DNA from: Escherichia coli
GTDB taxonomy: Bacteria; Pseudomonadota; Gammaproteobacteria; Enterobacterales; Enterobacteriaceae
Assembly (NCBI RefSeq): GCF_016903815.1
Contig: NZ_CP069973.1
Direction: 5' to 3' (one strand)
DNA: 64,000 nucleotides
Part shown: in pieces, positions 50,062 through 51,882 of the stretch
Layout of the letters: every line of letters begins with the position of its first letter
Position numbering within the stretch: the stretch's first letter is position 1
The notes under the pieces: model-generated
Told to the model about the DNA's origin: nothing
Database searches by the model: none
The model's input: only the letters and a program-made list of their open reading frames with translations
Program-made: the position numbers and the translations under genes

Positions 50062-50871
50062 ATGGAGGGACTGACAGTGGAATTTTCCGTATTAAGTAAC
50101 AATCTGAAAATGCCGATGATGGGATTTGGTGTTTTTCAGGTTACCGATAAAGACGTGTGCAAACAGTCAGTGCTGAATGCTATCCGCACGGGTTATCGAC
50201 TCATCGACACTGCAGCGGTATACGGTAATGAAGATGCCGTCGGTGAAGCCGTTCGTGAAGCCATATCTGAAGGTTTATGTACCCGAGAAGAGTTATTTAT
50301 AACGTCTAAATTGTGGGTGCAGGATATGTTGAATCAGGATACGGCAAAAGCAGGTATTGAAGCGTCATTAAAAAAATCGGGACTAGAATACTTCGACCTC
50401 TATTTATTGCACCAGGCTATGCGCGATTATTTCAGTGCGTGGCGTGCACTCGAAGATGCCTATGAAGAGGGCAAATTAAAAGCGATTGGGGTTTCCAATT
50501 TCTATCCTCATGTTCTGGCGAACTTTTGTGAAACGGTAAGAGTTAAACCGATGGTCAACCAGGTCGAGTTGCATCCCTATTTTGCCCAACCAGAGGCGCT
50601 GGCAACCATGAAGTATTATAACGTGCAGCCTGAAGCATGGGCTCCGTTAGGTGGTGGACGACATAAACCCTTTGAAAATAATCTGCTTCAGAGTATTGCA
50701 GATGCCCATCAAAAATCGATTTCTCAAGTCATTCTGCGTTGGAATATTCAACGGGGAGTGGTCGTTATTCCGAAATCGACACATCAACAGCGTATCGAAG
50801 AAAATTTTGCTATTTGGGATTTCTCACTGACAGAGAAAGAAATGGCGCAAATTAGTTCGCTTGATTGGTAA
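50062..50871 (+). CDS. Aldo-keto reductase, C-terminally truncated by IS1 insertion
   Basis: AKR motifs (MPMMGFGVFQ); an alternative GTG start at 50077 has a better RBS (ggaggg); the stop codon lies inside the IS1 left inverted repeat. Confidence 0.7.
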   Translation: MEGLTVEFSVLSNNLKMPMMGFGVFQVTDKDVCKQSVLNAIRTGYRLIDTAAVYGNEDAVGEAVREAISEGLCTREELFITSKLWVQDMLNQDTAKAGIEASLKKSGLEYFDLYLLHQAMRDYFSAWRALEDAYEEGKLKAIGVSNFYPHVLANFCETVRVKPMVNQVELHPYFAQPEALATMKYYNVQPEAWAPLGGGRHKPFENNLLQSIADAHQKSISQVILRWNIQRGVVVIPKSTHQQRIEENFAIWDFSLTEKEMAQISSLDW

Positions 50872-50921
50872 TGCTGCCAACTTACTGATTTAGTGTATGA
50901 TGGTGATTTTAAGGTGCTTGC

Positions 50922-51197
50922 GTGGCTTCCATTTCCATCAGATGTCCTTCCTGCTCCGCTACTGAAGGCGTGGTGCGTAACGGCAAAAGCACTGCCGGAC
51001 ATCAGCGCTATCTCTGCTCTCATTGCCGTAAAACATGGCAACTACAGTTCACTTACACCGCCTCTCAGCCCGGTACGCACCAGAAAATCATTGATATGGC
51101 CATGAATGGCGTCGGATGTCGCGCCAGTGCACGCATTATGGGCGTTGGCCTCAACACGGTTTTACGTCACTTAAAAAACTCAGGCCGCAGTCGGTAA
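50922..51197 (+). CDS. insA: IS1 InsA (transposition inhibitor / N-terminal part of transposase)
   Basis: 91-aa [43 protein letters not shown]… with zinc-finger cysteines. Confidence 0.9.
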
Positions 51198-51619
51198 CCT
51201 CGCGCATACAACCGGGCAGTGATGTGATTGTCTGCGCTGAAATGGACGAACAGTGGGGCTACGTCGGTGCTAAATCACGTCAGCGCTGGCTGTTTTACGC
51301 GTATGACAGGATACGGAGGACGGTTGTGGCGCACGTCTTCGGTGAACGCACTCTGGCCACACTGGAGCGTCTTCTGAGCCTGCTGTCGGCCTTTGAGGTC
51401 GTGGTATGGATGACGGATGGCTGGCCGCTGTATGAATCACGCCTGAAGGGAAAGCTGCACGTTATCAGCAAGCGTTACACTCAGCGCATTGAGCGACATA
51501 ATCTGAATCTGAGACAACATCTGGCAAGGCTGGGACGGAAGTCACTGTCGTTCTCAAAATCGGTGGAGCTGCATGACAAGGTCATCGGGCATTATCTGAA
51601 CATAAAACACTATCAGTAA
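51116..51619 (+). CDS. insB: IS1 InsB' reading frame (expressed as InsAB' by -1 frameshift)
   Basis: 167-aa ORF in the -1 frame relative to insA; IS1 transposase catalytic region. Confidence 0.85.
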
Positions 51620-51882
51620 GTTGGAGTCATTACCCGCTTGATTTGGGTTATGTTGGGGAATCGGTAAAACATTTTAATCCTGAGTTTGTTCGTGGTTGTC
51701 TTGCTGTAAAAATACATGATTGATATTAATCATGTATTTTACCTGAGACGACAAGAATCTTTTAACAGGGGAGTGATATTGATCTTCACTCTGTCATATC
51801 TCCGGTAATATGGCGTCAGGCTTCATCATCAGAAAGGGGGCCTGACGCCTGAAAAGGTGAACAACAGACAGTGTTCGGATTA

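Follow-up and report, generated by a model that had tools for sequence, protein, structure and literature searches.

A simple IS1F-type insertion with a 9-bp target duplication truncates an accessory aldo/keto reductase gene in a clinical Escherichia coli clone

In the 64,000-nucleotide stretch of Escherichia coli DNA analysed here (hereafter the window), the reading frame of an aldo/keto reductase (AKR) gene runs into an IS1-family element, which raises the question of whether the gene has been cut short by a recent transposition and, if so, what would be left of the enzyme. We regard it as nearly certain that an IS1F-type element transposed simply into an accessory AKR gene and truncated its product, leaving an enzyme that is probably impaired. 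The element entered codon 264 and duplicated the 9-bp target CGCTTGATT, and its left end supplies a Trp codon followed by TAA, which yields a 264-aa product lacking the 26-residue native tail.

An earlier reading made from the letters alone (the sequence-only reading) had placed a 768-bp IS1-family element at positions 50867-51634, and this placement is exact, as the interval (+ strand) is occupied by a complete IS1 of the IS1F type. The element starts with GGTAATGCTGCCAACTTACTGAT and ends with the reverse complement of GGTAATGACTCCAACTTACTGAT; these termini, which agree at 20 of 23 positions, are the left (IRL, 50867-50889, + strand) and right (IRR, 51612-51634, - strand) terminal inverted repeats of 23 bp each. 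A scan of the 64-kb window for IS1-end patterns returned two sites, compared with 0.04 expected by chance, and since there are exactly two, the element is the sole IS1 of the window. Its insA gene (50922-51197, + strand, 91 codons, GTG start) encodes the N-terminal zinc-binding domain (NCBIfam transpos_IS1 and IS1_IS1595_Zn) and matches positions 1-81 of the transpos_IS1 model with 89 bits, while the insB' frame (51116-51619, + strand) encodes the catalytic part of the transposase and scores 147.9 bits with NCBIfam NF033558 transpos_IS1 (cut-off 100). The passage from insA to insB' would be by a -1 programmed frameshift at an A6C motif (AAAAAAC, 51173-51179, + strand); a -1 slip at this A-run leaves an InsAB' fusion of 232 aa open, and the IS1 family transposase WP_094106546.1 carries the RefSeq remark 'programmed frameshift'. 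The frameshift architecture predicts an InsAB' transposase, and the element looks functional. Length, inverted repeats, insA/insB' architecture, transposase model and 9-bp duplication are all those of IS1.

The closest named relative considered is IS1F of K-12 MG1655 (NC_000913.3, 4518472-4519239), which is likewise 768 bp long and shares the terminal repeats, insA, the A6C motif and the insB' frame, with 763/768 identical positions (99.35%) and no indels. The two copies differ by five point differences and in chromosomal location, and insB7 of the K-12 element is flagged as a pseudogene, whereas InsAB' of the window is open for 232 aa. Canonical IS1, represented by IS1A (K-12 19796-20563), is equal in length, organisation and 9-bp duplication behaviour, but reaches merely 91.15% identity (700/768), again with no indels. 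Many E. coli genomes hold IS1 copies that are 100% identical to that of the window, among them strain 7/2 of the same lineage, which has an empty site at this locus and carries identical copies elsewhere in its genome; a donor within the same genome is hence plausible.

On either side of the element stands a copy of CGCTTGATT (50858-50866 and 51635-51643), so that the identical flanking 9-mers described earlier are confirmed at both coordinates. On the + strand of the 64-kb window this 9-mer occurs at these two flanks only, and on the - strand once, at 23933; two given 9-mers are identical by chance with a probability of 4^-9, or ~4e-6. The empty-site genome has a single copy, where the reference hits of the two flanks overlap (4459-4467). 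After removal of the IS1 and of one 9-mer, the window aligns to strain 7/2 (NZ_CP023820.1) with 0 mismatches over 8,924 bp, and strain 7/2 carries there an intact 870-bp aldo/keto reductase gene (WP_021516948.1, 289 aa), whose GTG start is equivalent to window position 50077. This is a precise, simple and unrearranged IS1 insertion with a 9-bp target duplication, and as an event it is ordinary, a textbook IS1 simple insertion.

The truncated AKR coding sequence (50077-50871, + strand) ends in ...SSLDW, its product reading ...AQISSLDW before a TAA at 50869-50871, which consists of bases 3-5 of IS1 and thus lies within the left inverted repeat, where the sequence-only reading had seen the frame terminate. 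On the far side of the element, the orphaned 3' end of the gene (51637-51723, + strand) encodes LDLGYVGESVKHFNPEFVRGCLAVKIHD up to the native TGA stop (51721-51723), and reading through the reconstructed empty site gives ...SSLDLGYVGESVKHFNPEFVRGCLAVKIHD followed by that stop. Residues 264-289 are replaced by a single Trp, and the earlier estimate of about 25 restored codons agrees with the exchange of 26 native codons for a single one encoding Trp, which shortens the protein by 25 residues. With the RefSeq start (GTG, 50077) the protein measures 289 aa intact and 264 aa truncated; an alternative in-frame start (ATG, 50062) would give 294 and 269 aa, respectively.

Over residues 23-262 of its 289, the restored protein matches Pfam PF00248 (Aldo_ket_red, E = 3.1e-42), and a PDB search returned 188 AKR matches, the best being TM1009 of Thermotoga maritima (1VP5, E = 1.2e-85). 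Residues D44, Y49, K78 and H112, which we take to be the Asp-Tyr-Lys-His catalytic tetrad of AKRs, are invariant in an alignment of 12 genera and lie within the motifs LIDTAxxYxNE, TSKLW and LLHQ, which can be aligned with 1VP5. The AKR barrel and the Asp/Tyr/Lys/His tetrad are common to 1VP5, to AKRs of the DkgA/DkgB type and to the protein of the window. Assignment to the 2,5-didehydrogluconate reductases DkgA or DkgB was rejected, as the respective equivalog scores of 235.4 and 163.5 fall below the NCBIfam cut-offs of 425 and 327, and therefore the protein belongs to a separate, uncharacterised AKR subfamily.

Orthologues with 80-86% identity are found in Enterobacter, Salmonella, Klebsiella, Kluyvera, Vibrio, Marinomonas, Marinobacterium and Celerinatantimonas, and almost all of them are exactly 289 aa long with the same tail, so the tail is native and under strong constraint. 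In an alignment of 12 orthologous sequences the tail reads LDLGYVGxxVKHFNPEFVRGCLGVKIHD, and 15 of its 26 positions, all within 265-288, are invariant (G265, Y266, V267, G268, K272, H273, F274, P276, F278, V279, R280, C282, L283, K286 and H288), which places it among the best-conserved stretches of the AKR across 12 genera. The surroundings of the gene vary: the orthologue of Vibrio natriegens adjoins ATP synthase genes, and that of Klebsiella comes after genes for a hydrolase and an MFS transporter, close to a LysR regulator. High conservation in unrelated contexts suggests that the gene has spread horizontally on its own and is strongly constrained.

What the insertion would do to the enzyme depends on the role of this tail, which lies beyond the Pfam barrel domain (23-262) and would correspond to 'loop C' of AKRs, a segment helping to form the substrate site. 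Loop C has been suggested to control how substrates are bound in AKRs, and its truncation lowered activity in hydroxysteroid AKRs (PMC9427786). Because the tail appears to be loop C and is nearly invariant among the orthologues, the truncated AKR is likely to be impaired or destabilised, and the gene would effectively be a new pseudogene; PGAP likewise classes the occupied AKR gene as a pseudogene. An AlphaFold2 model of the restored 289 aa, built with the 12-sequence alignment, has a mean pLDDT of 59.6, with values <50 at residues 265-289, too low a quality for locating the lost tail with respect to the active site. Upstream of the break, the whole barrel domain, D44/Y49/K78/H112 and the cofactor-binding segment IPKS...RIEEN are kept, and for this reason some residual activity of the 264-aa product is possible. 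It could further be argued that the insertion is real but neutral, the 264-aa reductase retaining fold and activity since the tail is outside the barrel: the Pfam domain is complete by residue 262, short of the break, the motifs for catalysis and cofactor binding survive, and in some AKR subfamilies loop C is very short, with 5-10 residues (PMC9427786). We consider neutrality unlikely, as the tail is invariant at more than half of its positions across 12 genera and is also present in the solved homologues, with 1VP5 aligning over residues 5-284, tail included, and 4MHB through residue 279; the lowered activity of other AKRs with a truncated loop C and the PGAP call speak against it as well. 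Truncation with probable impairment is hence the preferred reading.

Of 5,426 complete E. coli genomes surveyed for the insertion, only two contain the occupied allele as one contiguous match, namely those of strains 2779 and 5283, both of which are blood isolates from Houston. The sequence of strain 2779 (NZ_CP103521.1) is identical to the window at 9,568/9,568 bp, with 0 mismatches, and both this genome and that of strain 5283 (NZ_CP103762.1) have the same junctions as the window, with no difference at the locus, so that the window represents this very locus or that of a clone-mate. What RefSeq/PGAP records at the occupied locus is a gene labelled 'aldo/keto reductase; incomplete; missing C-terminus', then an IS1 family transposase and finally 'hypothetical protein; missing N-terminus', and the insertion is thus already known, being annotated in two RefSeq genomes. 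Comparison with the empty-site allele, proposed as a check by the sequence-only reading, found the uninterrupted site in most of the sample: 5,003 of the 5,426 genomes match an 80-nt query across the reconstructed junction without a break, and a 924-nt query comprising the uninterrupted site and most of the gene is covered to >=80% in 2,929 of them. Since the flanks show 0 mismatches over 8,924 bp and only 2/5,426 genomes carry the element, the insertion is both recent and not rearranged, in keeping with what the sequence-only reading had proposed from the duplication; it arose within one clinical E. coli clone.

Genomes of this lineage carry IS1 at 12-13 places each, and assemblies can go wrong at repeats, so it could be asked whether the element is an assembly artefact, a misplaced repeat or part of a larger IS1-mediated rearrangement. 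This is highly improbable given the perfect 9-bp duplication, the collinearity of both flanks with the empty-site genome, free of mismatches over 8.9 kb, and the recurrence of the same junctions in two separately assembled complete genomes.

The AKR gene sits between ykgA, a gene for a Rob-like regulator, and the convergent rclC, and the rclABC operon runs toward the insertion from its far side. As rclC is convergent, the insertion should have no polar effect on its neighbours. The ykgA gene (48971-49861, - strand) encodes a Rob-like regulator of the AraC family in the full-length form of K-12 ykgA and is transcribed divergently from the AKR gene; the NCBIfam model that fits it best is RobA, with 196.6 bits compared with a cut-off of 380. 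A conserved regulator-enzyme module of ykgA and AKR was considered and rejected, for the pairing is absent in Vibrio and Klebsiella. Further upstream, at 44596-48846, lies the gene for FdeC, an intact inverse-autotransporter adhesin of 1,416 aa, the K-12 counterpart of which, eaeH, is a pseudogene truncated by IS3A; K-12 ykgA is also a pseudogene.

In E. coli of other lineages the ykgA-AKR-rclCB locus has been hit by four independent IS1 insertions (L005-L008), each with a 9-bp overlap in reference coordinates. Two of them (L005, L006) are at different sites just upstream of the AKR gene (equivalent to window ~50040-50130), L008 is in the middle of the gene (~50350) and L007 is between rclC and rclB (~52500). 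Selection might have favoured the insertion in the window for its effect on regulation, for instance if transcription reading out of IS1 entered the convergent rclC at its 3' end in antisense; this would fit with the orientation of the element, the right end of which faces rclC at a distance of ~250 bp. Such selection is scarcely credible, however: a consensus scan of 49800-52000 gave no terminators, a result which says nothing about read-through, and promoter-like matches in the same interval were no more frequent than in shuffled sequence, with one in the left end of IS1; the insertion is found in those two genomes alone, and the independent insertions at the locus hit different sites with no common pattern.

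K-12 offers a second view of the gene. Its pseudogene ykgQ (b4631), likewise flanked by ykgA and rclC, is the same gene at the same position and consists of a 129-bp 3' remnant of the AKR gene (K-12 317439-317567), which encodes a C-terminus identical to that of the restored AKR, ...SSLDLGYVGESVKHFNPEFVRGCLAVKIHD. The AKR of the window is the full-length ancestor of ykgQ. K-12 lacks the sequences corresponding to window 50093-50677 and 50727-50817, so that there the gene was lost by internal deletions and not by IS1. As K-12 retains a remnant alone, the AKR gene is accessory, and other lineages have lost it independently. Many genomes are matched, as is K-12, only from window ~50678 on and have an IS1 adjacent, and IS1-associated deletions in those lineages are a possibility. 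A literature search for ykgQ gave a single relevant mention, which was incidental. The C-terminal truncation claimed by the sequence-only reading thus finds agreement in the intact 289-aa gene of empty-site strains, the 289-aa orthologues and the end of ykgQ. A native gene end at or close to the junction, with the downstream in-frame codons being coincidental, has next to no chance of being correct: no point in its favour was found, the gene is annotated intact with 289 aa in empty-site strains, the site is contiguous in 5,003 genomes, orthologues of exactly this length share the tail, ykgQ encodes the same end and the TAA sits inside IS1, by which this reading is refuted; no native end at the junction was seen without IS1, and the two flanking 9-mers do not differ.

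A broader interpretation would be that loss of the AKR, or of its tail, is adaptive in the bloodstream clone and that fdeC-ykgA-AKR-rcl is a recurrent target of IS1 inactivation. This interpretation draws on the fact that other lineages, K-12 among them, show independent IS1 insertions and deletions of the AKR gene. An IS1 lies inside ~1 kb of the site in at least 13 genomes, a count to be read against a background of about 11 IS1 places per genome and clonal inheritance. We consider such an adaptive role very doubtful, and simple transposition into an accessory gene remains the reading that we favour.

Several features elsewhere in the window were recorded in passing. The ykgE gene (~55767-56485), the first of ykgEFG, encodes an Fe-S oxidoreductase of the lactate-utilisation type and is frameshifted according to RefSeq, only a 181-aa open reading frame from 55940 being open in this region; both the IS1-bearing strain and strain 7/2, with its empty site, have this frameshift annotated, and ykgE is an older pseudogene of the lineage, unrelated to IS1. 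A tRNA-Thr(CGT) gene lies at 11239-11314, and less than 1 kb beyond it come a C4 antisense RNA and the isrK sRNA (12202-12391, - strand). Both RNAs are characteristic of elements of the P4-like or cryptic prophage kind, which suggests an island integrated at tRNA-Thr(CGT). At 27625-27825 there is a full-length match to Rfam IS009 (RF02111), with 190.7 bits compared with a gathering score of 117.

The significance of the insertion is small; what it leaves is a strain-specific pseudogene, and the accessory reductase concerned is uncharacterised. If recurrent inactivation by IS1 were true, this highly conserved AKR might come at a selective cost. The insertion can be used as a clone-specific marker for the Houston bloodstream lineage, and the occupied allele provides a natural C-terminal truncation allele for the study of the AKR.
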